A stretch of 63,594 bases of DNA, counting the filler, from Collodictyon triciliatum (taxonomy: Eukaryota), in the NCBI GenBank assembly GCA_043381765.1. It is 5 parts of 5 records of this genome, joined end to end, with 100 filler letters (N's around TTAATTAATTAA, not from the genome) between each part and the next. Parts side by side here need not be neighbours in the genome. Positions count along the whole stretch, not along the records: positions 1 to 15,376 come from JBHJMP010001336.1; positions 15,477 to 34,278 come from JBHJMP010001337.1; positions 34,379 to 53,176 come from JBHJMP010001338.1; 2 more parts are not named here. One strand, 5' to 3'. The position numbers and the translations under genes were made by a program. The notes beneath the pieces were generated by a model. That model made no database searches. It was given only the letters and a program-made list of their open reading frames with translations, and was not told where the DNA came from. Positions 313-61,198 of this stretch are shown here, piece after piece; the stretch's first letter is position 1, and each line of letters begins with the position of its first letter.

Positions 313-3300
313 CTAGATGCCCGAGTAGGTGGAGCGCTTGTTGCGGATGGCGTAGAAGGCGCCGGCAGCAGCGACAGTGGTGACGCCGAGTCCGACAGAA
401 AGCCCGATGATGAGCGCTGCAGTGAAGAGAGATGTGAGATGTAAGATGTGACATGTGACATGTGGGAGACAGCAAAATCCCAATAATGCTGAAAGTGGGG
501 CTCTGATTATCATCACGAATTGCTGCAGACACAAGCGAGACGCTTGTGAGGGCGGGATTTGATTGCAGTACCGAGGCTGTCGTCATCATCGTCCTCATCT
601 TCGCTATCATCGTCGTCGTTGTTGTCGGCAGGTGCGTCCTCAAAGTCGAATGAGAATGGCTCGGAAAGGGATGCACCGTTCAGAACAGCCTGCATGGGTG
701 TGATGATGGGTGTGATGATGAGTGTGATGACGAATGTGATGATGAATGTGATGATGGGTGTGATGATGGGTGCGATGATGAAATACGCACAACATATTTA
801 TCTCCGTCCTTGATGATAGACGACGAGAGAGTAGAGAGGCCACTGGGCTTCAGGTCGCGGTCAGTGAGGCCGTAGAACACAATCTTTTCGATGGGGTTGT
901 TTACGCTGTGGGAGGGTCACCGGTGGTAGAGAAATGGTAGAAGAGAAAGAAGAGGAAGAATAACTAAAAGGGCACGTATATATCATACATAATCTGTGCT
1001 ATGAATTGTGTATATAGTGAAAGCGGAATGAGAGCCCTGCGAGTCTGCAAACAAAGAGACAAACTCACACATATGAGCCAACGGACGAGCTTGTGACACT
1101 GAATGTAGTTTCGGAGGTGCGTCGGAACGTGAATGTAAACAGCTTCGAGTTTTCTGCGGTGTGCAATATGAAGGTGTGAGTCATCAGTATTGTTGTGTGC
1201 AGTACTTTTTCTTTCGCTGTCGGTGGTCAATGTGGTGCTTGGTTGGATAAGAGATTGGATGGGCTGATATGTTCAAAGGCAATCAAAGAAAAGCCAGAGG
1301 AGTAGAAGAGGTTTGGTGATTATCGTGATTATTTGTTGTTCTCACCTTCTGATACTTCAAGAGCTAATCCGTCATCTACATAAAGTTCGCCAGCTGCAAA
1401 TCCAGAAGAGTTCTGTCAAATAAAAGACAAAAGACAAAAGACAAAAGACAAAAGACAAAAGACAAAAGACAAAAGACAAAAGACAAAAGACAAAAGACAA
1501 AAGACAAAAGACAAAAGACAAAAGGGATAAATCACTCACAGAATACTGAGGTGTTGCGACCGACGGCGATGGCCAGAGTGTAGTTCAGCTTGCGGGCTTC
1601 GATAGAGTTGAGTGCTATTAACGCAGATTTGTTAGCCGCAGTGTATATGAAAAGTACAGTCTTTTGGGTGAGTAAATAGAGTGATTCAGCATTTCATAAT
1701 ACCAAAATATGCGGGAATGAGATTGTACCCTCTTGCTGAAGAACGACGATGGAGGCTTCGCGAATGTGGACTGTGGAAGGATGCAATTAAAAGTTAGCCA
1801 TCAAATTAGCTTCGAAAGAACTCATAATACTGCTCTTGGTTGCCTGTACAAAAGTGCCTATCTCTATGAAAGAAACAGAATTTCGTTTCATAGAGGGAAT
1901 ATAGATACTCATATTTCTTTATAAACTCACTGGGGATTTTCGACAGGGGTGCGTCCAGCACAATATTTTGACCACGTTCACCCTGAGGATATATCGGATA
2001 AGTACAATACGAAAGGAGATATAGAATTGGGATGATGTGGTTCGTTGAGACGAATATGGTGTGTATAACGTGTATAGTTGTTATCGGTTGGTATGATAGG
2101 TAATGGCTAGCTGTAATGACAGGATATGTATATGATATATAGATGAGACAGTTTATACCGTGGAAGTGACAGCGCCCGTGTACCAGTCATAGTAGGCATG
2201 GCCAGCAGGGAAATAGCCAGTGACTCGCACAGCTCCCTGGGTAACGACTGGTGTAACCTTTGAGCAACGTTTTTTTTTATTTTTGAGTGCTTGTACAAAG
2301 GTCACATTAAATAAGTGTAGCAGGTTGTGTATTTTTTTTTCCTTTATTCGATTCAAAGTAACAGGTTATGTATAATTATGTATGATCAATCAAGACAAAA
2401 TAAATAGGAACACTAAAAGAACCAAGGGTGGTCGAAAATGTTCAAATAAAATTAAAGAAACTCACAAGGATATTCTCGTTGACCATGAATTGGCTGTCGA
2501 TGTCCCATGTGAACTGTGTGCATTCAAGTTGAGTATGTGAAAATCTTCGTAGGCCACATGATTGAAATTGTAGCATAAATAAACAGGAGGAAAAAGGTAA
2601 AATATATTCATGAAGTAGTTCAATCTATCGTTCAGAATGTGTCCAATTTGTCACCTTGTCTTCTGGGTAGTTGAAGAAGAGTGGGCGAACCATGGTTCCT
2701 CCGTTCTTGTGGACCTTGTAGAGAGAAGTGTAGAAGTATGGCAGCATTTGGTAGCGAACTGCAGTGATTTCAGTTAATGAATAAAGATACCAAGGCAATT
2801 TCATGTTAACAGAGGCAAGTAGTTCGCAAAACTAAAAGAAAATAAAAGCTCCTTTACAGCGGGAATAAGTATTACAGTTTATGTGATTCAGTAAAGTTAA
2901 CACACAGTTTGATCACGTAGGAGGGCATAATGTCATTAGCATGAAAACTCACTGATGATGGAGTTGCGATTGATATTAGTCGCTTCGTCATCAAAGACAT
3001 AGGGCTCCTTCAATCAGAAGACGAGAAATGCGGTGAGTAAAATTCGTTTGTCATTTCGATAAATGAAAATGAGTACAGTTGATGGCGCATTTAAGGTGAC
3101 GATAGATATATGTTAGGCTGTATGTGCATGATGTGGTCGCAATTCATACTTGGGCAGGCTCTCCAATAGCGTTNNNNNNNNNNNNNNNNNNNNNNNNNNN
3201 NNNNNNNNNNNNNNNNNNNNNNNNNNNNNNNNNNNNNNNNNNNNNNNNNNNNNNNNNNNNNNNNNNNNNNNNNNNNNNNNNNNNNNNNNNNNNNNNNNNN

Positions 3301-6300
3301 NNNNNNNNNNNNNNNNNNNNNNNNNNNNNNNNNNNNNNNNNNNNNNNNNNNNNNNNNNNNNNNNNNNNNNNNNNNNNNNNNNNNNNNNNNNNNNNNNNNN
3401 NNNNNNNNNNNNNNNNNNNNNNNNNNNNNNNNNNNNNNNNNNNNNNNNNNNNNNNNNNNNNNNNNNNNNNNNNNNNNNNNNNNNNNNNNNNNNNNNNNNN
3501 NNNNNNNNNNNNNNNNNNNNNNNNNNNNNNNNNNNNNNNNNNNNNNNNNNNNNNNNNNNNNNNNNNNNNNNNNNNNNNNNNNNNNNNNNNNNNNNNNNNN
3601 NNNNNNNNNNNNNNNNNNNNNNNNNNNNNNNNNNNNNNNNNNNNNNNNNNNNNNNNNNNNNNNNNNNNNNNNNNNNNNCGGAGGCTTACCTCTCATTGTC
3701 GCCCAGCCAGTGGCCTGCATAACGGCCAGTACCAGGGAATGTAGCACGTGTAATGACAGCAGATCTCTCAAAAAAGAGCTCTTCGTAGGATGACTTTGTG
3801 ACTTTTGACTCAAAGTGTCCATACATGTTGTGGAGGTCGTATTCGATTCCGAGGTAGTACTTCGACTCCATGTCTAGCAAATGGAAATATTAGTCGCATG
3901 TATCTCGATGAAGAAATAGAAACTGAATAGAATGAGGTTTTAAGGGGTCGATGTGTTTTTTTTTTCCCCCTTTTATTCGATTCAAAAAGGGGTTGATTTG
4001 TTAGATATAAATATATATATATATTCTTACGCAGAGAGGTTCTATCAAGACGAGCTCCAGAAGTGTCATTACGGCCGGGACGAGAGTTATAATCACCTGC
4101 GAATGATGACAATATCCGAATGAGTTTTTCTGTCGGCTGTTTTTTTTCTTAAAAAGAGTACGGTGTAGTGTGAAATGTTTTAGTCTTGTAAAGCACAAGT
4201 ATCGCTAACCTGGAAAATATTCGGAAACGTCGTTATATTTGCTTGGAGGATATTTTTCCTATGATATATAAAGTGGTTGTGATTTAGAGACTGGATGAGT
4301 ATGTTAGTAGGTTGATAAACTCAAGGTATTCTATACAAAGTGAAATGTTGTGACTTACAGAACAATCGCAGTTGAAGAGGGATGGGTTTATCTCTTCGAA
4401 GGCAACGTTCACTTTGCATCGACCATCGCAGAAGGAGGCAATCTAAAAACACATAAGTTATGATATACACATATTCTTAAAGATAAAATAGCTCATTGGT
4501 GCGGAGGAAATATATGCGTCTACCCAGGTATTCATAATAGTGATAATATAGAATAAGGGACAGGATTGTTCGCAGAAGTGCTCAAACCTCATTCATGTCG
4601 ATCCACATTCCGCCATATTCAACGATATTATGGAATTCTAAAGTGAATGATTGGATGAATTTAGTGCCGTGATGAGGCTGTCGTGTTATTTTACTCTCAA
4701 GACTCCAGGGAACAGGGAATCCTGGTATTCATAGAGTTTTTGTTAAATTAAGATGACGCTAAATGTAATATGTACTCTCCAAGTGGAATTTCCAGAATGC
4801 GACAGTATCAGGGTTGGTAAAATCAGGGAATGCGGTGGCTCGAGGCCAAACCTGATAAGGGAATATATAGATGTATCAATCACGATGTCTCTGCGGATTA
4901 TATTCGAACGCGTGCATGGTAGATCATATTTATATAGCGGGAAGACGGACCTTTCCAAGGGATGGGAGAGAGCTATCGAGTGGGTCCTTCACATAGATTC
5001 CTCGAGCCAAGCCGTCTTCGTAAATGTCATATCCTGCCTCAACCTTCACTCCAGGGTCGACTAAAGAGTAGATAAAGGCAGCATTTAACAAGAAGGCTGT
5101 GTAAAACGGTATATAGACCTTATTCCATGGTTAAGCCCAAAGGGGACTCACTGATCAAAAACAGGCGCTTGGATTGTTCCTTCAGGTCTTGGGAGAAGGC
5201 ATAGAACTGCTCTTGAGGATAGTTAACAGGGTCAGTGGTGAAGATCTTGTAGCGGTCCATATAGTCAATGTCAACCCACATCGAGTCCAAGGGAAGCTGT
5301 ATGAATCCAGTGTGCAGATATTTATTTTAGAGTTCCGCAAATTAGCGCTTTAGATAGTATGAGGTTCATTGGAATTTGTTATGAAGGTTTATTTTAAAAA
5401 AAAAATCTCTGTAAATTGGAAAGTGACTGAATACAAACATTGTATCTGTTGAAGTTATTCACGACTTCTTCGACTTCAGCAATGTTCTTGTATCCATAGC
5501 GGCATTGGTGGAACCCAAGAATCCAGTAAGGGTGCTATGCGCCGTTTAATGCTTCATTACCAAGTAATTCAATAACAAGACGGCATGATTCTATCCGAAG
5601 ACGTGTTTCTAAACTTACAAGGCGAGCATGTCCAATGACATCGTGATACTGGCGAATAGCTTGCTCAGAGTCTGGGCCGACGAACACATAGAGATCAATC
5701 ACACCGCCTATTCAAGATAAAGTTTATGGTAAATGTCAACTTAGGGAATACAACAAAGTCGAGAGAGTCGTACAAGAAATTCATGGGCAAGCGTGTTCTG
5801 CGAAATGACTGAGAGGCGTTAGGATAGTATGAGCCTACCAACAGTCTTGAAGGTAAGGCTAGGAGTCCCTGTGCTGGTGAGGACAACATCCATAGCATTG
5901 CTGTTCAGTAGCAAAACGGCGTGAGAGCCGGATGTGCGCTTTTCAAGGTAAAAGGGCTGGCTTCCGTACAGCGGCAACTATGCAATTAGGACTGTTGATA
6001 AGTAGATCATACTTTATCTTTTTCCCCTTTATTCGATTCAAAGTGAAGTAGGCCATACTTTATACATATATGTATAGAAATATGTATAGGACTTATAGAG
6101 AACGGAGAAGGGAATGAAAGATGAACAAGGAGCAGTACCAATTCAGGGGTTGGGTGGTCGGTGTTGAAGAGAGTGTATGTGCGTTCGGTGTTGAGACGAA
6201 GTCTTTCGACGCGTTCACCAAGGCCGTAGATGTATGGGTCCTGATGAGATATTGGTGATATGATTGAGACTAGGATAAAAAAAATTGAGACTGGGATATT

Positions 6301-7381
6301 CATATATTGAATAGAATCCTTCGAGCCTTCCAGAGACCGAGCTGCAGGGGGAATTAAGATAGTGCGGTTGTTTTCCATAGTGACTGTACCTTGTCAGTCT
6401 TTGTTCCGATTTCGATGTATTGGTCATGGAAGACGAGCGAGGTAGACTCAAAGACAACAACCTTGTTCGCTGCATTAAATACAAGTGAGTGACAACGGTC
6501 TGGAAAACATTTTAGGACATTAATTCAGTAAAAGCGGGCCAGCTTGGTTAAGTCATTATAGTAAGGATGAAAAGAGTTCAGAATATAAGACTTTTGAAAG
6601 AATATAGGTGAAGAGAGAAAATAACAAAAGGAAGGGAGGGAGGGAGACGAAAAGAGGACATTAGAAGATGCGGAAACGGGAGAATTACATTTGCGGGTGA
6701 CGGTGATCTTGAACGGTATCGTCTCAACAGAAACGTCATAGTCCAAAGATTCCGGAATATCGACCGGGTCTTCCTTGATGATAACGTCGGGCACTTCCCA
6801 GCGCTGGTTGTTTGGGTCCGTGATTTTGAAGTGGAATGTGTTGGACGAGTGGTACACGGCAGTCAAAAGAAGAGGCGAAATGGCCCTGCACAAAGGAGGG
6901 GAAGTCAGTGGCCGAGCCAGAAGGCGGAGGCTTAGTCAGCCCTGAAACAGCAAGAGGCCTCTCGAAGCAGAAAGACTGCATCTCTTCGTGTCTGAGTCAA
7001 GTAAAGGGAGGAGGAAGGATAGGGAGAGAAAAAACTGGGAGCCAGCTAGGTCGTGCATATTCACTTAGTAGGAAGAAGTCTCTGGTGTTGTCCAGCTGTA
7101 ATATCCAGCAAGAGAATACGGAGAGAAGAGAAAGGGAATAAAAGGTAAAAAAAAATAAAAAAAAAAAAGAAATGAAAATGAAAATGAAAAGACAGAAGCT
7201 ATAGCAAAAGGAATCAAGGGACCGAAACTCACGCAGGATCGTCACCCACAGAGACGAGGGTGGCCACAAAGCCATTGCGAGTGATAGTAGTGTCCTGCGC
7301 GTTGTATTGCGCGGCTGCGACGCAGGAAGCAAACAGCACAAAGGCTGCTGCGATGCTCAAACGCTGCATCCGATGCTGCAT
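313..7381 (-). CDS. Glycoside hydrolase family 31 alpha-glucosidase (lysosomal alpha-glucosidase/maltase-like), multi-exon, with signal peptide and C-terminal TM anchor; interrupted by N gap 3174-3678
   Basis: Spliced minus-strand translation gives the GH31 nucleophile motif GGMWIDMNE (~4588-4615), the acid/base region AGHWLGDN (~3692-3720), FLGFHQCRYGY, LPLDSMWVDIDYMD, YDLHNMYG and YGLGER. N-terminus MQRLSIAAAFVLFASCVAAA (ATG 7369, or in-frame 7381). Last exon ALIIGLSVGLGVTTVAAAGAFYAIRNKRSTYSGI*. Confidence 0.93.
1425..1523. repeat. (GACAAAA)n intronic repeat
   Basis: Direct reading. Other simple repeats: (ATT)n 26572-26664, 31312-31417, 37735-37845 and ~40300-40408; (TTTTTC)n 27579-27686; (AAAAG)n 44692-44790; (TTGTA)n 50310-50420; poly(T) 17088-17139 and 21618-21688. 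Confidence 0.95.
2321..2373 (-). mobile_element. Micro retro-insertion, family A (insert 2333-2361), with ~12-bp TSD, in GH31 intron
   Basis: caggttgtgtat [t-run cctttattcgattcaaagtaa] caggttatgtat; TSD has 1 mismatch. Confidence 0.75.
3942..4002 (-). mobile_element. Micro retro-insertion, family A (insert 3958-3986), with 16-bp TSD, in GH31 intron
   Basis: aaggggtcgatgtgtt [t-run cccccttttattcgattcaaa] aaggggttgatttgtt; 2 mismatches. Confidence 0.75.
6000..6063 (-). mobile_element. Micro retro-insertion, family A (insert 6018-6045), with 18-bp TSD, in GH31 intron
   Basis: aagtagatcatactttat [ctttttcccctttattcgattcaaagtg] aagtaggccatactttat; 2 mismatches. Confidence 0.78.
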
Positions 7382-8399
7382 AAGGGATAAGTTTGTCTTT
7401 AGAACAGGTTCTTATTGATTTGATCTCATGCTTCCAACAGCCCCTCAGGCTTCAAGTTTGACGCCAACGTTTTTGTTTATTTGTTTGTTAATTTGTTAAC
7501 AAGTTAATTAGTTTTTGTAAAGAGTGATTCCGCCATAAGGCCAAACGTCTGGCTACAGAAGAAGACGAGTGCCTGTGATTTCCAAGCAGAAGAAAAAGAG
7601 CTGTTCTGAATGGAAACAAGATGAGCCATGGAAGGAACACGAGAAAGCGCCTTTGTTAGAGGGACGCTCCATTCCACCGTGGCTTCGTAATTGCCCTTGG
7701 CGCCCACTTTGGCAAAAGAGACAGGTGTTTGTATATTGCGAATGGCTTCGACCGTCCAACTGCGCTTTCGGCGCGACGAACAGGCATCGTCTGTTTGCAT
7801 GGACAGAACTTTAGACTCCTCTTTAAATCCCTCGCTCTTGTGCGGAAATTGTGTTAATATACACGCTCGGCGCGAATAGTCAACAGACTTTGGAATATCG
7901 GCGCAATGCTCCGTTCTTGTGCGAGAAAGGCTGTTGGGTACGAGTGGCCGAATTCGCGCGGTTTTGCAGATAGCGGCCGCCACAAGGGCATATTCGAGTG
8001 TGATTGTGTGGGTGGTAAATAAGAAAGTAAGACAACCGATTATGTGATGAAAACTATGTTAAAAATGTAGTAATATTTTGAATTAGGTTGTCTATAATTG
8101 TGTAATATTAAGAGTGAAATTATGCAGATGGTTCAGCGCGATGAATTCCGTGGTGGCTCAGAGATGACGTTGCTAGGCGATTGCATAGGTCAGGGGTCAT
8201 TGCTATAGTGTCAGTGTTCTACTATGCATATTATTCTAATTATTAGTTTTATCTAATGGATTAAAATATGAACTTATATAGTTACAATAGAAGCAAAAAT
8301 GTTTTTTATAATTAAATTCCACAAATATGAATTCTTGGCTTGGAACGATCTGCCAATTTCACGCTGGGTTTTTTTTATGCTTTTTTTCTCTCTGCATCA

Positions 8400-10799
8400 A
8401 TGACAGATCAGACTGGTCTTCGCAAAACAACAAGCAGTACGCGCAACACACTACGCAGAAATGGACCTACTCGACAAGAGCGAATTACTGCAGGTGAAAG
8501 CAACTTAGTTTGCATAATTAATTAATTAGTCTATATTCAATTTTGCAGTGACTTTTTTTGCCGAATGGAACTTTTTTTTTTATACCAACGCTCCTCTTTT
8601 ACTTATGTTATTTTAGTCCTTTATATATAAAACACATCAATAGGATGGTTTAATGTTGGTTGTTACATCTTTGAATCGAATATAGGAAAAAAATGTTGGT
8701 TGTTACATATACCATTTCTTTGTTTGGACGAGTCATTTTTATACCCAACGTGCAGGTTCGCTGTCTCATCGGGGCCTCCTCTGTTCTCTCGATACTTGGC
8801 TCATCCTTCATATTGGCAACCTACTATTTTTTCCCCAGAGTTCGTTCTTTTCCTGTCAAATTGCTCTCAATGCTCTCAGTGTCAGATCTCTTTGTTTCTG
8901 GGTTCCACTTTTCTAGTGTTCCATTCTACTCTGATTATGATCGACTGCCATCTGTTTTAGCTTGCCAGATCCAGGTTTTGATATATGAAAATCTATTCAT
9001 ACTTAGATATTGATTTATCATTATTTTACTACTATCATCGTCAATTTCATAATCATAGACATTATCATTTAAATTGTGAAAATGAATCAAATATGCACAT
9101 GCTCATTCAATCTTAAGCTATTATTCACTTTTCTCAATTAATCTGATTCGCCATATCTCTTCTCTTTTATCGATGGGAAGTGAGATTTTTTCTTTAAAAA
9201 AAGCATTCTTTAAAGGGGGCCGGAATCCAGTTTTTTAGCCTGGCTGCGTTTTGTTGGTCCTTTTCCATAAGTGTTACAGCATATTTGGTAAGAACCGTTG
9301 ATTATCTAAAATACTTTTCACCCTAAATTATTAGGCGATTGATGGGCGGGTCTTGTCTCTTAAGCCCATAGATTTCATTGCACAATATAATATCCTACTT
9401 TAGGTTGTTGTGAAAAAGGTCGTTGAAATATCAGAGTACGAAAAATATTATCATTTGTTTTGTTGGGGTTTACCGACAGCGACCCTTATACCACTGGTAG
9501 TTCGATATCCTGACATGGGTCCCAATTGGTGAACTTTTTTTTTTTTGTTCAATCTCGACTTTAATCCACATGTGATGTATTTTGATTCATAATTTTTATT
9601 TAATCTTTAATAGTACAGTTATGGATATCAAAACTGGATACATTAGATTTTCAGCACATATAACGAAATACTTACCATCATAATAATATGTGATTTGTTA
9701 TTTTAATTTTTAAAAGTGGTATAATTATACTTAAATTTAGGTGCTGGGTTGGGTTTGAAGGGAATGATGTAAGATTTGCCTTATCGTATGTTCCTGCAAT
9801 CATTTTGCTTCTACTTAGCATTCTGTTTTATGGATTCACTCTTTTCAGAGTCTTTAAGAGGAGAAAGAAAATGGAATTGTGAGCTTTTGTCATTTGCAAA
9901 CGAAATATCACGCCACTATGTTAGTTTCCTTTAAAATCGATTACCAACAGTGAAGTTAAAGAAATGCGATATTACACCTAAACATGTTGGCATCCATGCT
10001 ATTTTCAACATCAAACAGGGAATCACAAAAATATATACCGAGGATGCAGGCACCCATTAATGCTAAGGCGGAAGCATATAAATACCTTGGTACGAGAGTG
10101 GCATTTAGGCTGTCTCTTTATGTCATTATTTTTGTTGTCTGCTGGATTTGGGCCGTTGTCAACCGACTCCATGTTGCGATATACGATGTACGTTTGATCA
10201 CCAATATTTCTAACGGAAGCACGAAGTAACACATTACTATGGAATATGGACCCTAATATCATCATCCCTTTCTTTGATTCCCTGTAAAAGTATTTGCTTT
10301 ATGCTAACTCTAGCTTTCCATCAATCTCCCTTTTCCGATAGACAAAACCAGAGTATGTACTTTTCGCTCTTCAAGCGTGGTTTACCCCATTACAAGGTCT
10401 TTTAAATGCGATAGTATATGGATATAACAAACAAGTCAGAAAGGTAATTTTAACATTGTTTTTCATATTTTTTATACTTAAAATAGTTAACATTATTATT
10501 TACATAGACATATTTCATTTCCAGAAAAGTTCATGTCTGAGAGATATTTCATATGTCATGGAGTCAATAAAATGTAACAAAAAAACACAAACAAACAAAA
10601 ATAGGTGTACAGAGACCATTTTCAAAGTGTTAGGGACGAGAAAGAAAAGAAAAGGGAAAAACCTCAGCAAAAAATTAGACCAGAAATATATGTCTATGTT
10701 TCTTCAGATGACGAGGAATGTAGTACGCCTATTAGAACAGATTCTACATATTCAATTTATCAAACTGAACGACCTCTTTCTGATAACGAGGGTGTGTGA
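8400..10799 (+). CDS. cAMP-receptor-like 7TM GPCR (Dictyostelium cAR/Crl, plant GCR1-like family), multi-exon
   Basis: Exons give SVLSILGSSFILATYYFF...LLSMLSVSDL, CQIQ-GAGIQFFSLAAFCWSFSIS, EKYYHLFCWGLP, W-CWV, FRLSLYVIIFVVCWIWAVVNR and FTPLQGLLNAIVYG, typical of this family. The exon-1 assignment is less certain. Confidence 0.88.
8652..8708 (+). mobile_element. Micro retro-insertion, family A (insert 8669-8691), with perfect 17-bp TSD, in GPCR intron 1
   Basis: aatgttggttgttacat [ctttgaatcgaatataggaaaaa] aatgttggttgttacat. Confidence 0.88.
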
Positions 10800-11592: not shown

Positions 11593-14500
11593 TTATGAGA
11601 TTATATGTGTTATTTTGTCAATTAATGAGTAAGTTTGTCTACCAGAAAATGGATTTGCAAGATTTTTGATAAGTGTCGGTTTTGCATTTGTGGTGTTTTC
11701 GTTCAAAGGTGCTTTTTGCGAGTCCATCGTATAGGGATGCCGCAACTCAACGTTTCTTTTCAAAAATACATCTGCCCTTAAAATCTTTGAAGCTGACACA
11801 AAAGCTATTTCGACAGCAGTCTTTTTCACATGAAGAGAATCCCATAAGCCAGTTTTATCACTCTCAACGACAGACGAATCGCCCATTCCCTTGATATGAA
11901 TGCCGAAAAAACTGTAGCGTTCAACCTCATATCTGAGAAAAATTGAAACAAACTTTCAGGAAATGGCGGCGATTTATTCATATTGCTTGATGGTTAATAT
12001 TTTTCTTACTATAAACCAAAAAAATATTACCGAAGAACTAGCCTTCGTTTCACTCAAATTTTAAAATGCCTATTTTCTATAATAAACATACTTTCGCTTC
12101 AAATTTTCAAGGCTTTCAGGTATAAATCCTTCCTGTTTAATGGAATGGAAAATTTTAAACGAAAATATCTACGTAGATCACGTTTGAATGTAAGAAATGA
12201 AAACAAGTAAACTAAAAAGTAAATTAAAAAAGTAAATTAAAAAAGTAAATTAAAAAAGTAAATTAAAAAAGTAAATTAAAAAAGTAAATTAAAAAAGTAA
12301 ATTAAAAAAGTAAATTAAAAAAGTAAATTAAAAAAGTAAATTAAAAAAGTAAATTAAAAAAGTAAATTAAAAAAGTAAATTAAAAAAGTAAATTAAAAAG
12401 TAAACTAAAAAGTTAACTAAAAACAAACATAAAACAATCATAAAATCCGACAAATGAAAAAAAGTAATTGAAACCTGCTGAGAATTTGATATAAGTTTCT
12501 TCACTACATCTTCAAAACTTTGGGACAAACACCGATTAAACATTCGTTCAACAATATTCTCGTGTTCAGACTTTGACCTGGATGTGGTAAACAAGCAAAA
12601 TGAATCAACGATTCCCTACGACACTGGGTGTCAAAAGCATTAGCAAGAATATTCAAGGTACCAGACCTGTAATGAGAAGATAGAGCCACCTCAAAACCCC
12701 CACCACCACTGACCACATAGCCATCCTTCCTTGCCATCAAGGCAACCCGTAAAGCATCCTTTCCGGATGAAATCAAAGTTGGTATATCTGCTTCATATCT
12801 AGTTCGTATAAGAATCGTCTGGCAAGTGAGAGTAGCGGGTGCAATATTAGTAGACCTACGTTAAAGAAGGCTATTTTATTTTATGTTTTGCTTTATTTCT
12901 CAATAAAAAAGGCATAAAATAAAGAGGAAAATATTTAAGAGATAATAATTGTGAACATATAGGATTAAACACCATTTTGATTCTACTTTTTGACAATTGA
13001 TATGTTTCGCACGACCCAAAAGCTTCGAAAGTTGAACGCCTGAAAATTGGAGAAAAGAATCGTTACAATAAGGAAATAAGGGGATGAAATTTTAATTTAA
13101 TTATGATTTATACATAATATATTTATCAAATTACATGATAATACTAATATAAAGTAATTTTTTAAATGTACATTACCTGATAAGCCCTTTATGTCTTCTA
13201 TGCAGTTGAAAATACTTGTCCCTGTGCGATAAGCAATGTTTTTGCATAAATCCTGTTACGTTATGTGAATTCTTTATAAGAAAATTGAATAGAGGGAGCA
13301 AGAGATTTTAATCCAAGAATAGACGGACGAAGGTAAGGAATGCATAGATGTGTACCACATTTTTTTTTTTGGAAAAAGTACCTTCGGTAGCAGAGATAAA
13401 AGGAGAATACCCCTTTTTGCTATGTAATCAATGACCGGCTGGGTTTATTTTTTAATCAAAAAGGCGATGTTAACTCGAATGCAGATTGATTATTATTGAT
13501 AATTGATAGATGAATGATTATATAAATTATCGTTTTAATTCACCCGGATAATTTTACAAAATTTCTTAATAATTTGCATTGAGTGTGAAAATCGATTAGT
13601 ATAAGTATTAACTGGGGGAAGATACTTTTCTGTGATAATACACAAAGGCACGTAATCAGAAAGTTTGGAAACGAAGTGCTCAACTTCCTAGTTTTCATTG
13701 AGGAAAAAAAAGGTTCACATCGCAAGAATTTATTGCAAACATGTTTCGTGATACATTTGGATATCTTTTTAAAGATTGCTTAAATTCCTATACCTTAATC
13801 GACGATTCAAGATGTGACCTAACCATCTTGCCACTGACTGATTGGACTGATTGGCCTGGTATTTTGCACACGCAAAAGCTCACATTATAAACCCGCAAAC
13901 GTACTTTGAATCGAATAAAGAAAAAAATAAACCCTCAAACGTGGTTTGACATCGACCCTCATAAAAGCTTTTGTATACTCGACAATATTAAAAACTGATG
14001 ATAAAATTACTGGCAGGAGACCAATCTAACAAAATCAAAAGGAAAGGAGATTCAAGGTTTCGTGGCATGGAATGATGAGAAGGCTTTGTTTATGAAATAG
14101 AATTTCGAGGTTAGTCCGAAAAAAAAAAGAAGAAGGAAGACCTTTGACGAGAAATTGCATATTTCTTATGAAGTAACACTCATAAAGATAAGTAGTTATA
14201 CAAACCCCTCTGTCGAAAAGAAGACCATCGAACATTTGAGTTTTTGTTTCATTCAAAGCCAGTTGACATGTCAAATACGTCTCGATATCACCTCTTCTGG
14301 AAGCTTCATATATGATGGATGCAATATCCTTTATTTATTTATTTATTATATGCCATCATGTGTGATAAGTTGAAAAATATACATTAAATCAGTTTCGCAT
14401 AAAATGTCATCAAATGATTATGTGAGATATTTGAATCGAATAGAGGCGGAAAAATAATCGTGTGAAATCAGAGCTGCGACTTTGTCATGAGGCCACCTTT

Positions 14501-16477: not shown

Positions 16478-16768
16478 TTTTTTTTCCTTTATTCGATTCA
16501 AAGTGCAACAAGGTTATGCCATAAAAAGAAGTGAGACAGGTGCGCATAGTGAAGAGCAAACGCGAGTAAGGGAAGACACTACTGTGGAGAGGGTAGCACT
16601 GGAAAGAAATCAGTGATAGCGAGTTGGTCAGGCGGGCGTCCCAACTGGTTGATTGGTTGCGTGGGTAGCAGGGGTTGGATATGCTGTGGGAGATATCTTA
16701 CGACGCATTCCCACATCTCTCTTCGCTTGCGGTCAGAGTAGCGAAGAATGCGAGCGTGTTTCAGCGGA
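16478..16768 (-). mobile_element. 5'-truncated non-LTR retrotransposon (LINE) 3' end: ORF2 C-terminus, 3' UTR and poly(A)
   Basis: The peptide ILRYSDRKRREMWE...QLAITDFF resembles the C-terminus of the zinc-finger-bearing ORF at 59847 (VLYYSDPVRRDMWK...QFLITDYF). The 3' UTR ends ACTTTGAATCGAATAAAGG(A)8. Confidence 0.75.
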
Positions 16769-17081: not shown

Positions 17082-17140
<59 letters not shown>

Positions 17141-18405: not shown

Positions 18406-21400
18406 ATGTTTCGACAATTCAGAGCCAACACGGTCGATAACTCAGCTCGTCTCGAAGAGCTGCGAAAGCTTGCGGAAGATCCAGATATTGTCTCCCTTCA
18501 AAACCGGACCCATTTGTACCTTGGATCAAAGAATCTGACTTCTTTTCCACCAGCAGTTTTCATACTGACCCGTTTGTTGCAGTTATGGGTGAATAGCAAC
18601 CAGATATCGTTCCTTCCGCCAGACATTTCGCGATTGAGAGGTCTCAAGGTGCTTAGTGCTGACAGTAACAAACTTTCATCTCTTCCGCTAGAAATATCCC
18701 ATTTGACCAACTTGGTTTACCTTGGTGTTTGCGGAAACCAGGTGTCGTTTTTGCCTCTAGAGATATCCGTTCTGACAGGTCTCACTTATCTGGGCTGCGG
18801 AAGCAATCTCCTAGCGACACTAGAGCCGGAGATATCGTGTCTGACAAACTTAAAAGAGCTTGATATCAGTGTAAATAAATTATCGTGGCTTCCTTCCGGA
18901 ATATCCTGCTTGAAGTGCTTGGAATACCTCAGCGCCTATGAAAATCTATTTTCATACCTACCTACTGAGATGTCTGATTTGGAGTGTCTCAGAGAACTAG
19001 ACATTGGGTCCAATCAGCTGTCCTCTATCCCCGAGGGAATTCTGTGGTTAACCGGCCTAAATGAACTGCATATCGGAGGCAATCATCTTCCCTCCATTAG
19101 CCCGCAAATATCATGGCTGGCTGACTTAATTGTACTCGCAATCGACAGGAATCCGGTACAATTTTCTTTCAATACAAAGAATATCAATATAAATCCTTCA
19201 TTTCCCTAAAATTGTGAGATTCAAATTATCACAGAATTTAGAAAACACATACCTTTAATGATAAAACCAAACATAGATCGAAGAGCTCCCATCTGAAATC
19301 ACAGCTTTAAAAAATCTGAAGAGATTATACATCGAAGCCTCAGGCCAGATAAATATAAAGAGAGCTCCCTGCGGAATTACTAACCTCCCTTGCTGGGACA
19401 ACAAGGACAAACCTTCCACAGACATGACCATGAGTTTTGCGGAGGCTCTTCAAAAGCTTGAACTCTACGACCCCGTAAGCAATATTTTTACATTGTATTA
19501 AGTGATACTAATTTTTTTTTTTTATTCTTCCTTTCAATTTTGTGCAGGATGGTGGAGATGTTGGCATTAAGTGATACTAATAATAACGTGGTATAATTAG
19601 GGAACATCTGTTTTTGAAGAACAGGGAGGTTTCAAATCTGAGCAAGCCAGGAGAGCTGAAGAGGATGCTAAGGTTTTTTCAAACCCTCAAGGAATAACCT
19701 ATCGACTAGAAATTGAGACTATCAGATTGTGTAATTGCCATCTAATTAATATATAGCATCAGCCATTGTTTGTCCAAGCGATCAAGTCTGTCCACCCAGG
19801 TTACAATGACTCCAACCTTCACTCAATTCATGGACTGATGACTCCAAGTATACCCATTGATTGTGGTCTCAGGACTAACACCGATTTTATAGATAAATCG
19901 AGGGCGAACTACAGACCCTTCGCAAGCGGAGAAGTGTTTCAAGTAAAGTCTCGTCTGGCGTCAGGGTGAGATTTATCGGTGTTTTCTTTTTTCTTTCTTT
20001 TTGACGGAATCTAAGCTCATCTTCTGGGCTGTAGTGTGCTCGAGGTTGACGGTATCGTCGAAAACTTCTATGTGGATGAGAAAAATGTAAAGGAGCTCGA
20101 CAGAGGCAGCTGCGGGAACGTGTCGCTGTATGGTGAGAATAATTGTGTTGGAGCAATCTGTCACTGTTTTCTACTCCATTTTAATGGAATCTACAGTTTA
20201 TTTTTCTTCTATTTGTCTTTTTCTTTTCCTTTTTATTCATTTCTTCTCTTTTCTTCTCCTTTGAATTCAATCTTACACCTCATTATCCTACTCGCACTCG
20301 AAACTAGACCAACACAAGAGAAGGCTGAAACTCGCAAAAATCCAACAGCGCATCATCCACGCAAAGTCCATGGTCTCGCAAGTAAGTAACCCAACAGTTG
20401 TGTCCCCATCGACCATCTATCATGTATAACGGTATTAAACACACCACGAGCGTCACTTGACTCATCCCTGTGTCAAGATTTGTACGGACGGTCTGGACGA
20501 TGATGAATGCACGACTTACGACGAGCTGTACCACGGAAAGGAAGAAGAAAATGAGATCGCTGTCGAAGGCGGCCAAATACCCAGGGATAGTCAGCAGGTC
20601 GCCGACTTCTCAGAGATTGTATATTTCGTGAGCGAGGACTTTGTAAACAGCGCGGTGGAAAAAAAGGACTCTGCTGACATTACGGCCAAGCGCGTCAAAT
20701 TAGAAGTCGACGCTTGCCTCTCTGGTGCATTGTGCGCGCTCTGCTTCAATTTCTACACAGCGCCCCGCTCTCTTCCTTGCCAACACACTTTCTGCACTGC
20801 ATGTATCAAGACTGCCATCATCGACTCCAAGCAGGAGCCTCCCTTCAGCTGCCCGATGTGCCACGAGCACACATATATCGACGAAGACTCCTTGTGCGAC
20901 TTGGCTCCTCCCCAGTACGACACCGGAGCTTCGGAAGCGGCAAAGCAAAGTCTGGATGCAGATAAGAATGAACGCTCGACTTCTCGCCAAAAATGCCGAG
21001 CAAGAGGATGCTCAGAAGATGCAACGTCGTACTGTGAGAACTGTGGCGAAAAGGGTGTTTACTGCACAGAACACAGCAAAATGCACACCGTTGTATTGGA
21101 CGACCATGTCATCAAGTAAGTATCTCTTCATCACCAGCATAGAAGTGGATGGTGGGTGGATGGGATTTATTTTTCACATTTGATATGGGAAGTGTGGTTA
21201 CCCTATAAATATATGAACATTTCACAAGGCCTTTAGTATGGGGAGCAGTGCCGAGCCTGAAGAAGGTGGAGAACTGTGCATTGCACAAAGATATTCCAAT
21301 CGGATTCTTTTGTCCGTCATGCCCCGAGTCTCCTCTAAAGTGCGCGAAGTGTGTATATGATGACAAATTTCATGATGCATTCCACAAAGAACTGAAGCAG

Positions 21401-21615: not shown

Positions 21616-21690
<75 letters not shown>

Positions 21691-24348: not shown

Positions 24349-26105
24349 ATAATAGGAAAGTAATTCAATAATGCAGTGAATTGAATAAATTCATGCCAAA
24401 TCACATGACGGTGAGGTATGCTATGATCTTGTCTCAGGGAAATTCTTGAAGTTAATAGGATACTTTTCTTTTACGAATACAGCTTACATATTTTGCACTT
24501 TGTTTGCACATAACCCTTCACTTTATCGTTTAAGTGTTTATCCTCCCTATATGTATTATGATTATCTGAATTATTAATTGTGATATATTCCCTCTTTTTT
24601 AATCATAGGATTATCTTTTCAAGATGGGTTTCATCCGCGAACACTATTTTATCCTTCAAAATGCATCGGGTTTAGTAGTGGTTCCATAAAGCATTTAAAC
24701 GTATGCATTTTTATTTCTTGTCCATGAACGGGAAGATAGGTATTGCAGCACAACTTACTGCCATGCGATGTATTTTATATATATCTATTTTTCTTTTCTC
24801 CTCTCATCAATAATCAAACTGTTTCACTAAATTTATTGATTATGTTCAACATTAATATTGGGATTAGATGCATATATTCTTGTTTGTACTATTCATCCAT
24901 TTGGTTGGGCTATTAAGTTCCTTACCTTTACTTCGTAGATTGGTTAGAAAAGCAATAGGATGTTGATAGTGGTAGATTTTCCTTCCTTCTTGCTTCCAAT
25001 CCTCATGTGGACTTTATCAGACTATCATTTCATGGTCCTGATATTCCTCTTTAGATACGTATTTTCAAGGACGGTACAACTATTGCTCTTTTATATAAAG
25101 AAGTAGAATTATCACACCACTTTATTATAAATATAAATGCTTGATTAAGCACAAACTATGTTTTTATAAAAATGTATGCAAGTAAAATATCAAAAGAATT
25201 TTCAAACCCTAATTCATTGATGTTAATTTTTTCCATCATCCATCTCATACATCTTACCGTACCAAACCACATATACAAAACTCAAAAAAAAAAGTATCAC
25301 CAAAAGAAAAGTGGGAGAAGCAGTTTCGCTTTCTACATATTTGTTCCATTGTTTAAATCATATATAAATATTTATCTAATAAAAGGTATACTTAACCCTC
25401 AACCCGGGAATTGTTTTTTACGATGTTTAACTGGTAACTCATTTGATCTAAATGCAAGTGTTACTCGAGACAGGATTTTTTAACAAGTGTCTATGAAGCT
25501 CTGCATTTTCAAAAATCACACTTATTAATCGAGCTTATCCTTTTATTTTATCAGCTCCAAAAGCATATACGTCGATGTAGTATTGACCTTATCAACTCTT
25601 TCTCATCAATGTTACAGCACAGAAAAAAAAAGAAACTTATATATTGATATGAAAAATAGTACCTGAGTGAATAAAAGTATGTTAATACAAATTTTATTAC
25701 TTCAATTAAATACATACTGAGTGATTTTTCTTTCATGTAGTTTTTATGTTGTCCATATAACAAAATATTTCATAAAAAAACATGTCGACACTTAGTTAAG
25801 GATGGTTTGTCTATTAAAATTAAATAATAATGTCAAACTATTCTATCGTGAATTTTGGTAGTACCTTTACATTCAATTGAGACAGAAAGCAATAGAAAGG
25901 ATATATTAATTGAAAGGAAGAATAAAAGAAAAAGAAAAATGGAAACGCCACATTAAATTATTATCGTGATTCGGAAATAAAATGACAATGAAACGAACAA
26001 CGCCATTTAGTGCTCATATTCAAATGATATATTTTCTGGTATTTTAATGCTTATATTTTTTTTTACTATATTTTCACTGATGAAATACTGACAAAGTACC
26101 TCTAG

Positions 26106-32278
<6,173 letters not shown>

Positions 32279-37505: not shown

Positions 37506-40871
<3,366 letters not shown>

Positions 40872-41393
40872 CGACGCAGACCACGTTCCTGTGAATTATG
40901 ACTTAACGGGTTGGCAGACGCCTGGAGAAAATCATGAGAGTTCTTGCATATCTTCTATTTGCCAGTGTATCCAAGCCATATCCCACGCTTCTGCAAGCAC
41001 TTAACACCCGACTTGGCTTTGACTTTCGGTCTTTATTCGATGCGTTTCTTGGGTGTGTGGATTGAGTGATTGCAACTCTTTATTGATTGATCGGTCGATC
41101 GAAAATGTGGATAATTCATTGAAATTATTCATATTTGTTTCCACATATATACAAATTAACAAACATCTTTACGAACTACCGGAAAAAAGGGCGAACAGGG
41201 GAATTAGCCGAAGGAGATTCCTAGTGCCATTTTTGAGCTTCATAATTGCTTTTTGCCTTATTATCAAAAAGCTAATGCGAAACTGTGTAAAATTCATCGG
41301 TTTCGATAGTTAGAACATCAAGATAAAAAAAACTGAAAATATATCCACAATTATCGAGACTCCAGCCCGGCAAAGGCAAAAATATCAAGGTGA

Positions 41394-41476
41394 TGACAAG
41401 AGTGGGATTTGAACCCACGCCCACAGAGTAGACTGCGACCTGAACGCAGCGCCTTAGACCGCTCGGCCATCTTGCC
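41394..41476 (-). tRNA. tRNA-Leu (anticodon CAG), intronless, long variable arm
   Basis: GGCAAGATGGCCGAGCGGTCTAAGGCGCTGCGTTCAGGTCGCAGTCTACTCTGTGGGCGTGGGTTCAAATCCCACTCTTGTCA: acceptor stem, D loop, anticodon stem CTGCG/CGCAG and T loop all pair. Confidence 0.97.
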
Positions 41477-42952
41477 CTTCTTAATAATAAAAATAACCAA
41501 TATATTATATATCCTCATTTATTATCTTCTTTTGGAATTTACTCACTCATCCTGTTTTTGCTTTTTGCATAGCTAATATAATCAGTTCCTCCGTTCCCAA
41601 CACGGTGTGACATTCCCTCCCTTTGGTAGCAATCCTTTTCTCGTCAGAGGGTGAGCCTGAAACTCTGTAGTGGAAAAAAAAAACTCTTACTTCATCGGCC
41701 TGGAAGAAACAAGGCAACCATGCCGGCATAGAAACTGGGAGGCGACGCGCCACTCTTTGTGAATAGCATGAGAACATCAGGCAGTACATACAGCGAGATC
41801 TGGCGTTAACGTGTCGCCCAGGAGAAGAGGCTTTCTTCTTACTCTGAAAATTCTCATATTCGTCATGGTTACCTTTCGATATGTTTCCACAAAGCCCACC
41901 AGTGCGGGTCAAATGGCTATGCATGCGTTATTTACTCTCAGATTACAATTAATTAAGCTCTCGTCTGTTGAATGAGGCAGGGCTAGTCTAGAGTTTATGC
42001 AGTCTTTTTCCTCTCCCCAAGAAGTCCCCTTGAAACGACCGATGCAGCACTTGTTAGAAGCACGGGTTCTCCGTCATCCTCCAAGAAACTAGTAGGTTCA
42101 CCATCTCCACTACCAACATTTTTTCGTGTATCATCGTTTCATAAAATAATCAAATAATTAACCGTGAGACAAAAACTCCATCGCACTCTTGACCTATCAT
42201 CTCGTTAGCTTCAGCGATTCCGAACAAACGGCTGTCGCCTTTGTCTTTTTTCTCAATATGCCTTCCATGCAGAATTCTCACAGCACATTTATATGCGCTT
42301 TGGATTCATTGACTATGGGAAGCAGAAGCATGAAGCTCCCTCCAATCAAACTAACTGCATTCGGCTCAAGTCGTCGTCATCACGGCGATATGTATGTCTT
42401 GATGTAAATATTTTCATCCCAATACATATATCATAAAGAACGACCAGATAACTTTTTGGATGTAGTGAAATTGATGGGGTTTTTGTCAATAGGCCGACTG
42501 TCATCACAATACCAGGCAATGTCCCCTTGACATGTACTGGGCCTATGACAAGCAGCCAATAGATTGGATGGGGCACAACACTTCCGGGTAAAGATTTCCA
42601 CACCGAATGGCCAAAAAGCTGTCGTGAAAGCGGAGTTCTACCGTAGCAGGGGCATTTCAAACTAATTCCTAGAATTAGACCGAAATGTGCATTCCTTTCG
42701 ATTTTGTTATCGCCCTTGTGGGTTGCTGCAGGAGATATTTATTGTGGTTCGAAAGCTTGAAAAGAAATATTCAAACTGTGTGGGGAAATCTATTGCTAGC
42801 ATCCCTTCCCTTCTTTCAGTGATCAAATATAACCTCGAGGGGTAAATACATGTCTTCAATGCCCAAGTTGAACAATCAAAGAAAAAATATTAGTGATCCA
42901 TCCATGAACCCACAACAGTTCATCATTCACATTTTCTTTGCATGTTGCTGAT

Positions 42953-43047
<95 letters not shown>

Positions 43048-43048
43048 C

Positions 43049-43123
<75 letters not shown>

Positions 43124-43130
43124 CTCTCTC
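42953..43130. repeat. (TTTC)n microsatellite
   Basis: Direct reading. Confidence 0.96.
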
Positions 43131-44485
43131 TTAAATCACTGTCAATTGATTTACGTAGCAATTTTCTTTCAATTATGTATGAGTCATGCTCAATCCTAGA
43201 CTCAGTCGTTTGTTAGTTTCTGGATTACGACTTTGTTGTCATGGTTGATGATGTTTCGTTTTGGGCCTGTTCATCCTATCTTTTATTCCTCTTACTGTCA
43301 TCGTTTTCATTCTCATATAAAACTTGCATTTCAAAACTATGAATACGAAATGAAGAACGATATGTCCTTATCGTCGTCCACTCACATCTTATTATGATGG
43401 TACCTATCATAAATGAAAATTAAAAAGGCCATGTAATACACTTCTCCCAAGCCTGAAAAGGAGTTATAAATCTTCTGTTTAGATTTTAGCAAATATATTT
43501 CGGATACATCTGGCGTGGTCAGTAATTTAGCATGAGAATAGTGATTTTGGAAGAAGATAATTCAATTTTTTTTAATAAAATATATTTTCTATATACCCTC
43601 CTTCTCCCCCTATGAGAGCGTCAATAAGGCAATTACATCACAGAACCAGTGTGTTACTTTATTATTACTCGTGAATATCACATTTTCTAGAGTCTCCAAA
43701 ATAGTGACGTCCTCGACTTTGTCAATTATCTTTGTAATGGTGAAAGTGTATTAAGGTCATCTTTTCCAGGATGAATGGAAATAGCCCTACAGGTTATAAG
43801 GAATCCCGAAATTCCTCTCGAAACAACGTATATAATATTACGTGATATAATCTTCAACCGCTGTTTTAGCCAAAAAAAAAAAATTGGACAGATACTCAGC
43901 ATAAGTAAACTAAGCAGGCGCAATTTTTTCTTGAAGGATAAAGGATTAGATAAATGCCGTAATTCATGATTGCGTCTCTAAAACAAAAAAAAAAAATGAA
44001 TTGAGATTAATTCCATCAATTTTAGAGTATTTGAATCAAATAAAGGGGGAAATCAATAGCTATTGTCTTCTATTTACAAGAGAAATGCATGGTAATCAGT
44101 TTATATAAAAAATAGCCTGCATGGTAGCTATCTTTTTCGCCTTCCTCTCATTCCGAGCCAAGTCATAGCAAAACAAAAAAAAATGAATATGTATCTCTTG
44201 GGAGTGAGTATGCATAGTAATATATGTTAAAAATATGTCAATTATATAATAAAATAAGATAACAATATGAGCCTCTTAGATGCTCTTACCAGGAATTCTT
44301 TCGCCCATATCCCTCTCTCCCACCAAATAAATCTACACCGACGTGCTTTTACGCCGAATAAATGCACCGAGCGGACAACCCAAGCCGCGACCGAAGACAA
44401 CCGCGAATGTTTTGTGAGGCCATCCGTTTTCTTTCCAGATTCGTTTATTTTCTTTTTCTGGAGCCGAGGGTAGAGCGGGCAGATT

Positions 44486-47400
44486 TTACGCGCCCTTGAA
44501 CAAAAGGTTGCGGAAGTCGCTGTTCGACAAAGGTGTCTTCTTCGAGTCCACGGCACCGACACCAGCCATTTCGATGTTGGAGGGGTTGTCAGATGCATCG
44601 CTTGACTTCAGGACGATCTTTTTCGCTTTCACAACAGATGACGGAACCATAAACGCCCTTGGCTTTGGCCTAAATTATTCATTTCGATATAAAGAAAAGA
44701 AAAGAAAAGAAAAGAAAAGAAAAGAAAAGAAAAGAAAAGAAAAGAAAAGAAAAGAAAAGAAAAGAAAAGAAAAGAAAAGAAAAGAAAAGAAAAATAAAAA
44801 ATTAGTAAATAAGTAAATAAGATCAGGGTATGGAATGGAAACATGCATTTGCAGTTTCTGCGAGGCTGCCTGGACATATTTCAGAGAAAAGCGCACTGTC
44901 ATTACACGGAAATGGTATTTGTTATGGAACGCAGAGGCATAAGGGGCGGAGCACAGGGGCTTACTTTTCTTCGCTTGATTTTTGTAAAGAAGTTTGGGCG
45001 TGTGCCTTCTTTTCCGTTTGCTTTCGGGATTTCTCCTCTTCGTTCTTTTTTGGGTCGGATAACGCCACCTCTAGTTTTCTGCCTTTCAAAGAATAGCCGT
45101 GCAGAGAAACAGCGGCTTCTGCTTCTTTCTGTTGTTGACAATAGGCTTTGGTTAGAACCATTTAATAAGAGCAATTTTTGAATACACATTTGGCTAATTA
45201 TTATTTATCATATAGTTGAATTGAATAAAGGGAAAAAAACATTTATCATATAGTATTTATCATAAGATTCCATAATGTTCGCTGAATTGCATGAAAAGCC
45301 GTGGATGGGAAAAAAAAAACATTGAATGGTTCATTAGATAAATATTTGACTACAAAATTTTTTTTTTGGTATAAAACGTAATATATATCTGATTTCATGC
45401 TGGGCCAAAGCAATATATATGAACCAGTGGGTGTTGATAGAAAGGAAACAAGAATAAAGGGAAATTTTGTAAGAGAAGTACTTCTGTGGAGTATTCGACG
45501 TAAGCAAATCCTTTGTGTGTTCCTTTGTGGCCACAAATCAATCGGATTTCCTTGATTGGTCCAAACTAAATATGAAAGCAAGATCACTTTATGAGTGATA
45601 TGTGCTTGATGTAAAATAAGCAAATATATTTATACCAAGATTGGTAGTGAATAAATTTGACACGCCGCATAATATATGCAATTCACAAGGCACACCTGGT
45701 TGAAAAGGTTCTCCAGGTCACGCTTCGTCGCAGAAAAATCAATATGGCGAACAAAAATGGTAGATTTATCAGAATACCTAGAGTAAATGTAGACTATTAA
45801 GTTTATAAAATTGGACTTGAGTTGCTCCATAATGCTAATATTCGGTCTCAAAATAAGGATATATATATTTGTTCAAATATCTTTCATGAGTTTACTCTGG
45901 CTTCTTCATTCTTGCATTCAAATCCACTTGCCCGACATTCCTCTCTTGGTCTTCTCGTTTCAGTTCTAATACGTTGTTATGTTATATAAAGAATAAATAA
46001 ACAAATAAAGAGATATATGAAAAAAAATATAATGCAACGATAATTCAAGAGGCGGTATCAAAGTTCAAAGATTTCAAGTATATATTTAAAAGTAAATAAT
46101 ACTTGCGTTTATAAGATTATAGAAGAAAAGTATGTGAAACTATTACAAGTGTGTGTATGTGTGTTTTTTTTATTACCTGACGTATCGGATTCCTTCCTCT
46201 TTTTCGGCAATGGTGCGGCAAATCCTTTCGTATCTTGCATTTGAAATATGAAATTGAACAGAATGATTTTTTTTTATATATTTCTCTACCCCATTGGAAT
46301 CAAAGGCATAAGTTGTTCAATAAATAATGAGTGTGGTCTATTTGATTATGGAATTACCTAGTGTTCTCTTAGGCCCATCGTGGCTTTGGGTATTTGTAGG
46401 CCCTTTTTGTAAACCCTTCGCCGTCAAATTACTTAAAGTGGGTTTATCCATGATTTTCTGAATAATTAGAGAGGAGAAAAAACCGTTCATTTAAAAAAAA
46501 ATCCAAAGATTTTATTCACGGTTTAAAAATACTCTCACTCGGGTGTGAAGCGAGTCTCTGTAAGTAAGAATTAATATTGAAAGAGCATTCAACGTATCCA
46601 GATATCCAGATATATATATATATATATATTATACGAGAATTGAAAGTAGGAGAATTATATAGGTCTAACTCTAGGTTTTGTTGTTGCTGTTGGTTTCGTC
46701 GCAGCATCATTATATTTATCGAGATAATCTTGTTGTCTCTGGTTATATTTTGCATAGGTATCATGAACCACTTTGGATGCCTCTTCCCACTAATATATAT
46801 CATTATCATGCTCGTATCAAAGCTTTCATATGCGGTAGATATACCGCCAATAAGACACCATAATAAATATGGGTTATAAGTTTTATACTTGCTGCAAAGA
46901 TCCGCTTTCTCTCTCAAAATCAATCCAGTATGCACCCAATGCATGAGGTGTATCCAGTTCGCTTTTCAAAGCCTTCTGGAGAATATCTCTGGTTTTTTCG
47001 CTATCGCCTAGCAACCTGAATTATACATGAATATTTGTATATGACAAAAAAAAAGCATGTCGATTGAGGATATAATGAATCAATTCGAAAGATATTGCAC
47101 AAATTTTTTTGAAGATGTAAGTCTTAAGATATAGAATTATCTATTAAATCAAGAAAAAAAGGAAAAAGACAGAAAACCTGTGATGTTGCGCACAATTCAT
47201 CCAAATATCGGACAAGTAAGGTGCAAGTTCTAAAGCGTGAGTCCAGGATATTGCGGCCGTATCAAGGCTCGAAAAGACATGGATCTGACGTATCGATTAA
47301 TGATGAATTTTTTGTTTATCCAAATACGACCTTAGAATCAGTTATAGACAAGATTAAAGATTATATTTTTTTTGTACCTCAAAATCTCCCCATTTTCTGT

Positions 47401-61160: not shown

Positions 61161-61198
<38 letters not shown>

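Follow-up and report, generated by a model that had tools for sequence, protein, structure and literature searches.

What might explain why a sequence of fewer than 20 bases, each time followed by an A-run, recurs at ten places in a stretch of Collodictyon triciliatum DNA (GCA_043381765.1), in most cases between direct repeats that differ from place to place? The window, by which we mean the whole stretch analysed, spans 63.6 kb and consists of five contigs joined by N44-TTAATTAATTAA-N44 spacers. The inserts of about 25 bases that it contains are very probably tail-only copies of a poly(A), L1-like long interspersed nuclear element (LINE) with an APE-type endonuclease. They display the hallmarks of target-primed reverse transcription (TPRT), they are identical with the 3' terminus of the LINE, including one to three upstream bases, and they form a discrete length class.

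When both strands of the window were searched with the 16-mer TTTGAATCGAATAAAG, allowing up to two mismatches, 10 matches were found, whereas 100 dinucleotide shuffles averaged 0.20 and never exceeded 3 (0/100 reached 10). Four copies lie on the minus strand (2342, 3971, 6027 and 16487) and six on the plus strand (8670, 13905, 14430, 29297, 44030 and 45215). A preliminary description of this DNA had listed eight inserts on three contigs; all eight (2342-, 3971-, 6027-, 8670+, 13905+, 14430+, 29297+ and 45215+) sit where it had placed them, and the contig joins in the window bear out their distribution. A perfect copy at 16487-16502 (minus) was absent from its list. Every copy has the same layout on the motif strand: zero to three nucleotides, TTTGAATCGAATAAAG, zero to five G, and an A-run of 3-10 bases (5-10 in nine of the ten, 3 in the other), with GCGG in place of the G-run in one copy and with AATAAA in the core just 5' of the A-run. 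The G-run between AAAG and the A-run, 0-5 long among the copies, also differs by four letters between the window (3966-3970) and the RNA contigs of run X2 at the 3971 insert; this variation could reflect homopolymer slippage or heterogeneous source RNAs. The copies are as follows.

2317..2373, minus strand: micro-insert 2342; 5' duplication 2358-2373, insert (TTTG...AAAGG plus A-run) 2333-2357, 3' duplication 2317-2332, 14/16 matching
3942..4002, minus strand: micro-insert 3971; 5' duplication 3987-4002, insert 3958-3986, 3' duplication 3942-3957, 14/16 matching; in intron 3874-4030, sense
6000..6063, minus strand: micro-insert 6027; 5' duplication 6046-6063, insert (CAC, core, GGG, A5 and G) 6018-6045, 3' duplication 6000-6017, 16/18 matching; in intron 5978-6138, sense
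8652..8708, plus strand: micro-insert 8670; perfect 17-bp duplications 8652-8668 and 8692-8708, insert (C, core and A-run) 8669-8691; one motif change
13887..13942, plus strand: micro-insert 13905; 16-bp duplications, 15/16 matching, insert (AC, core and A-run) 13903-13926
14429..14451, plus strand: micro-insert 14430, called older; one motif change, possible duplication of 13/17, not significant
16478..16765, minus strand: 5'-truncated copy of the source LINE, 288 bp; 3' untranslated region (UTR), tail and A8, 91.3% identical to positions 104-391 of metagenome contig L030, without a clear duplication
29279..29336, plus strand: micro-insert 29297; perfect 17-bp duplications 29279-29295 and 29320-29336, insert (C, core and A-run) 29296-29319
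44030..44052, plus strand: degenerate tail copy 44030; one motif change, GGGGG, A-run of 3, duplication not found
45203..45254, plus strand: micro-insert 45215; two motif changes, perfect 12-14 bp duplications at 45203 and 45241

Repeats shared by the 5' flank and the bases that follow the A-run were scored without gaps (+1 for a match, -2 for a mismatch), with a threshold of at least 10, and 3000 random window positions of the same geometry served as the control. Seven of the ten copies reached the threshold with repeats of 12-18 bp and 0-2 mismatches, in contrast to 3.1% of the random positions, most of which were in tandem repeats; the predicted excess of flanking direct repeats is thus confirmed within the window. 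The duplications are perfect at 8652/8692 and 29279/29320 (17/17 each) and at 45203/45241 (12-14 bp), carry one mismatch at 13905 and two each at 2342, 3971 and 6027, and differ in sequence as well as in length from copy to copy. At 14430 the best flanking repeat, 13/17, does not rise above the null, and no flanking repeat was found at 16487, at 44030 or at a further copy at 27323. Of the two cores previously called degenerate, the 27323 copy deserves the name with four mismatches, whereas the 44030 copy has only one. The age gradient that had been read from the duplications is not supported, resting as it does on 0-2 mismatches in seven repeats that fail to track motif divergence: at 8670 and 45215 the duplications are perfect despite one and two motif changes, respectively.

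A scan of the window that was blind to the motif gave the same picture. It recorded every A-run of at least 6 bases associated with a repeat of at least 12 bp around an insert of 8-100 nt, a repeat of at least 14 bp being classed as strong, and the mirror orientation, in which the insert has its A-run at the opposite end, provided the control. Seven strong loci were detected in the retroposon orientation, six of which contain the motif, compared with no strong and four weak loci in the mirror orientation. At all eight target sites, one of them belonging to an unrelated insert, a T precedes the duplication and an A is its first base, and six of the eight read TT|A. Because the duplication overlaps the A-run, the leading A is to some extent imposed; no such constraint applies to the T at -1, whose p, by our own arithmetic, is about 0.003 given non-A. 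A T|A-type nick is the preference of L1-type endonucleases. Together, the A-run at one end only, the duplications of variable length and the T|A at 8/8 sites uphold the original proposal of TPRT by an L1-type LINE.

The locus at 2342 is more complicated than the others. Its duplication resembles the LINE bases directly upstream of the tail, the 3' copy runs on into LINE-like sequence (...ACACTT; window 2258-2464, minus), and a second A-run lies nearby at about 2270-2285. An older, related tail may have received the insertion here, or the locus may be a copy of about 32 nt.

Where does the tail come from? Metagenome contigs were scanned for the 17-mer and contain it at no fewer than 118 loci; among the metagenome matches listed, almost all are chance occurrences lacking an A-run, one (L111) is doubtful and only L030 is a clear relative. 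Viral contigs gave 0 matches, and one match among prokaryote genome contigs, in a 347-kb contig of a Bacteroidota metagenome-assembled genome, was taken as chance. L030, a contig of 1157 bp, aligns with window 16478-16765 at 91.3% identity across 288 bp that close with the tail. It was the copy at 16487, which forms the 3' end of the matching 288-bp element, that allowed the source element to be identified. In order on its sense strand, L030 comprises a 202-codon open frame, a stop, about 420 nt of untranslated sequence and ...GGCATAACCTCGCTACAC-TTTGAATCGAATAAAGG-A10. The open frame corresponds to the C-terminus of ORF2 with a zf-RVT domain (PF13966; 32.4 bits, cut-off 27.5) and has seven close relatives among metagenome fragments; longer close homologues were searched for and none were found. 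An exhaustive search yielded four distant relatives of 1226-1275 aa and 25-38% identity, with which the L030 region aligns near residues 960-1150; all four possess Exo_endo_phos (APE endonuclease) and RVT_1 (reverse transcriptase) domains, and three have a weak zf-RVT match. Since the tail follows the zf-RVT open frame in L030, and the relatives carry the endonuclease and reverse transcriptase (RT), the motif is, judged from sequence comparison, the 3' terminus of an L1-like, poly(A) LINE, and the copy at 16487 is best described as an ordinary 288-bp truncated copy of it.

The short junction sequences agree with this origin. Between the duplication and TTTG there are no bases at 3971 and 2342, C at 8670 and 29297, AC at 13905 and CAC at 6027, and the junction bases C, C, AC and CAC are those of the LINE's own ...CAC|TTTG; seven such matches by chance would have a p of about 6e-5 (own arithmetic). 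No microhomology was seen by eye at the 5' junctions, except for AC at 2342.

The lengths of the copies are what set this family apart. With TAAAG plus A-run as the anchor (5 nt), tails down to 5 nt are detectable; the LINE-derived lengths are 42+ (the 288-bp copy), 19, 18, 18, 17 and 15, and there is no tail copy of 6-14 nt in the window. Four copies with a mutated anchor also begin at TTTG and measure about 16-17 nt. Thus about eight of the ten copies end within a 15-20-nt interval, one extends to 288 nt, and the micro-inserts contain no coding or UTR sequence beyond the terminal tail. This sharply peaked insert-length distribution fits the earlier suggestion of a TPRT that 'habitually aborts after ~20 nt'. 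The 5'-truncated ('dead on arrival') copies of L1-type LINEs share with these inserts TPRT, the 3' A-run, variable-length duplications, the T|A-type nick and identity with the element's 3' end. However, L1 truncation points spread over kilobases, and the absence of a broad spread here is a departure from the usual L1-like truncated copies. The length pattern is neither the smooth decay of random abortion nor the broad spread of L1. The process is ordinary LINE 5' truncation, of which the copies are unusually short and uniform in length.

How might such short copies arise? The LINE endonuclease would nick the target at T|A, and the freed T-rich 3' end would prime on the A-tail of the LINE RNA. 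The reverse transcriptase would then copy only the last 17-20 nt (...(CAC)TTTGAATCGAATAAAGG), and joining of the cDNA to a second, staggered nick 12-18 bp away would leave an insert of about 25 bp between target-site duplications. As to why copying stops, we tentatively prefer a template that is already short: trimming or cutting would have left only the stretch of LINE RNA shielded by the bound RT/poly(A) complex, and copying would run out at a ragged 5' terminus 17-20 nt from the tail. Raggedness of 0-3 nt at the 5' end would suit exonuclease trimming against a bound protein. A possible alternative is a fixed obstacle just upstream of CAC on a full-length RNA, which would force an early template jump to the second strand. 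Predicted folding of the last ~160 nt does not surpass that of shuffled sequences (z -0.23 and +0.66), and there is no credible Rfam match in the window tail/UTR or in L030, hence no known ribozyme. A more far-reaching and rather unlikely idea is that the last 17-20 nt and the A-tail constitute a self-sufficient minimal retroposition template, or 'nano-retroposon', produced by precise cutting or footprint-limited trimming of the LINE RNA, amplified to many thousands of copies that go undetected by repeat finders, and hence a major but overlooked source of intron growth in this lineage. Such a template might come from slicing guided by small RNAs, or from 5'-3' decay that is stopped by the bound RT/poly(A) complex.

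RNA contigs of three runs define a minus-strand gene at 3690-7377 with 14 introns of 84-347 nt, and the inserts 3971 and 6027 lie in two of these, 3874-4030 and 5978-6138, in the sense orientation. Both introns are spliced normally in all three runs. The distance to the 5' splice site is 44 nt for 3971 and 93 nt for 6027, and that to the 3' splice site is 82 and 40 nt, respectively; insert plus one duplication accounts for 30% and 29% of the two introns (each ~160 nt), in keeping with the proposed contribution to intron growth. The claim that all inserts lie in introns can be maintained only for 3971 and 6027, which fall within 3873-4031 and 5977-6139, the intervals bridged by splicing in the RNA contigs; by eye it is likely for 2342 (a GTGAGT ... 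AG pair). No open frame of more than 128 codons contains a motif copy. Inference of the host-gene strand from T/A skew was calibrated on the 14 known introns and proved uninformative. The RNA contigs contain no insert-free form of 3971, 6027 or 8670; their intron coverage is patchy, and they are therefore uninformative on empty sites.

The window also has traces of other retroelements. A different retro-insert at 19497-19581 (minus) comprises 53 bp (19513-19565) ending in GAATAAA and A11, perfect 16-bp duplications and a TT|A target, and its last 26 nt recur at 25908-25933 (plus) with 96% identity. These two sequences may belong to another family of LINE tails that likewise gives rise to very short copies, which hints that several LINE families in the window may behave in this way. 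An open frame at 59817-60410 (plus) has a weak zf-RVT match (26.3 bits, below the cut-off), is 78-79% similar in nucleotide sequence to short parts of L030 and has no recognisable tail downstream; it is a fragment of a related but different LINE.

Could the short copies belong to an element in their own right? A dedicated micro-SINE (short interspersed nuclear element) would be an independently transcribed RNA of ~20 nt bearing the LINE's tail and mobilised in trans, the tail module being common to both as in SINE/LINE pairs. The discrete length class with its ragged 0-3-nt 5' end, and the ratio of about eight short copies to one or two longer ones, would be expected of such an element. It is nevertheless improbable: neither an RNA polymerase III (Pol III) promoter nor a SINE head of any known kind fits into 17-20 nt, the 5' bases C, AC or CAC continue the LINE sequence, no master locus is seen in the window, and there exists a 288-bp copy with the same tail. 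No Pol III-type head with an internal promoter is present, the non-A part being 17-20 nt without an Rfam match at the copies. The 'dedicated ultra-short SINE-like RNA' of the preliminary description is therefore unnecessary now that the source LINE is identified. The copies might also have been retroposed from the 3' end of some abundant host mRNA with a chance ending in this sequence. In favour of this, AATAAA stands in the core, and the different 53-bp insert at 19513-19565 indicates that the machinery copies other tails too; we regard this as very improbable, as the L030 sequence upstream of the tail enters the zf-RVT open frame, whose relatives are LINE ORF2 proteins.

Selection on introns to retain a splicing or regulatory motif would be in accord with the two sense-oriented intronic copies. 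This reading is effectively refuted by the duplications, each copy having its own unrelated one, and is at odds with the unconserved intron position (44 versus 93 nt from the 5' splice site), with the presence of copies on both strands and with the copy that forms the end of the 288-bp LINE fragment. A short sequence, nearly identical at many sites, might also be suspected of having arisen artificially in the assembly or the library, for instance from an adapter-like oligo that had entered the reads. We consider the chance of this negligible: the insert at 3971 is spanned by two run X2 contigs, whose sole departure from the window is 4 letters of a homopolymer run, which means that this insert is not an assembly artefact; an independent metagenome contig has the same tail on a LINE; and the 0-2 mismatches in the duplications indicate that the copies aged in place.

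Several observations weigh against derivation of the inserts from the LINE tail by TPRT. Three of the ten copies (14430, 16487 and 44030) are without a significant duplication, and the LINE-like duplication at 2342 is unexpected from simple TPRT into a random site. The fold z-scores and the lack of an Rfam ribozyme mean that neither proposed cause of stopping is directly supported. The coding part of the LINE is known only from L030, a metagenome contig with which the window shares 288 bp of UTR, and L030 itself stops inside ORF2, so that the RT and endonuclease domains are read only in relatives of roughly 30% identity. Finally, there are only 10 copies, in a window chosen because of them, and the length peak could be a property of a local sample.

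The inserts invite comparison with other short products of LINE machinery. Truncated RTE elements were once misread as SINEs, according to a passage that cites Malik and Eickbush (PMC2887409). As described in that passage, they too are short, non-coding, duplication-flanked LINE 3' fragments that vastly outnumber full elements and resemble a separate short element; they keep part of the RT coding region, end in simple-sequence repeats and have duplications of 6-12 bp (PMC2887409). Unlike these, the inserts described here total only ~25 bp, end in an A-run and have duplications of 12-18 bp. SINEs with the 3' tail of a partner LINE have in common with the inserts mobilisation via a LINE-type tail that is recognised or used by the partner's RT; the inserts differ in that they lack a Pol III-derived head and a body, are too small to accommodate a promoter, and have 5' bases that continue the LINE. 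Mammalian orphan 3' transductions and very short L1-mediated insertions are likewise made by LINE machinery with little or no LINE body, and are rare and heterogeneous, unlike the single uniform tail-only class that dominates the copies of this family in the window. In a literature search that left out subscription journals and supplements, neither the motif string nor the leader sequence described below was found, and a uniform ~20-nt tail-only LINE class was not apparent from titles and the beginnings of abstracts, which speaks only weakly for novelty.

With every event, non-coding DNA grows by about 40-47 bp, insert and duplication taken together. If the ~20-nt class holds genome-wide, it marks the minimal RNA that L1-like machinery can install, and provides a natural read-out of where reverse transcription or its template ends, a poorly understood step of LINE integration. 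The inserts, too short for repeat annotation to catch, would then add unnoticed to the growth of introns and intergenic DNA, at a density of about one per 6 kb as in the window, and would also be a source of AATAAA signals inside genes and of presence/absence markers that are dense and easy to type. Should the class prove not to be genome-wide, what is seen here is ordinary LINE truncation.

The mRNA of the minus-strand gene has its 5' end at 7377, where in three runs 9-23 extra letters are joined at a canonical ...tgcag| acceptor. These letters do not occur in the window at up to 2 mismatches and could come from a first exon located far away or from a leader added by trans-splicing. They differ from the LINE tail, by which a spliced-leader origin of the motif is ruled out.

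Among its other features, the window encodes RING and NHL-repeat, LRR and Roc-COR proteins, and parts of it are also present in freshwater and lake metatranscriptomes. Long N-runs at 3174-3678 (505 bases) and 48027-48844 (818 bases) lie inside contigs and are distinct from the 44-N spacers. A 13-bp tandem array, AAGTAAATTAAAA-like, occurs at 12214-12399, homopolymer A/T runs of 35-70 bases occur at 17088-17139, 21618-21687 and 61163-61198, and a tRNA gene is located at 41394-41476 (minus; Rfam, 55.7 bits).

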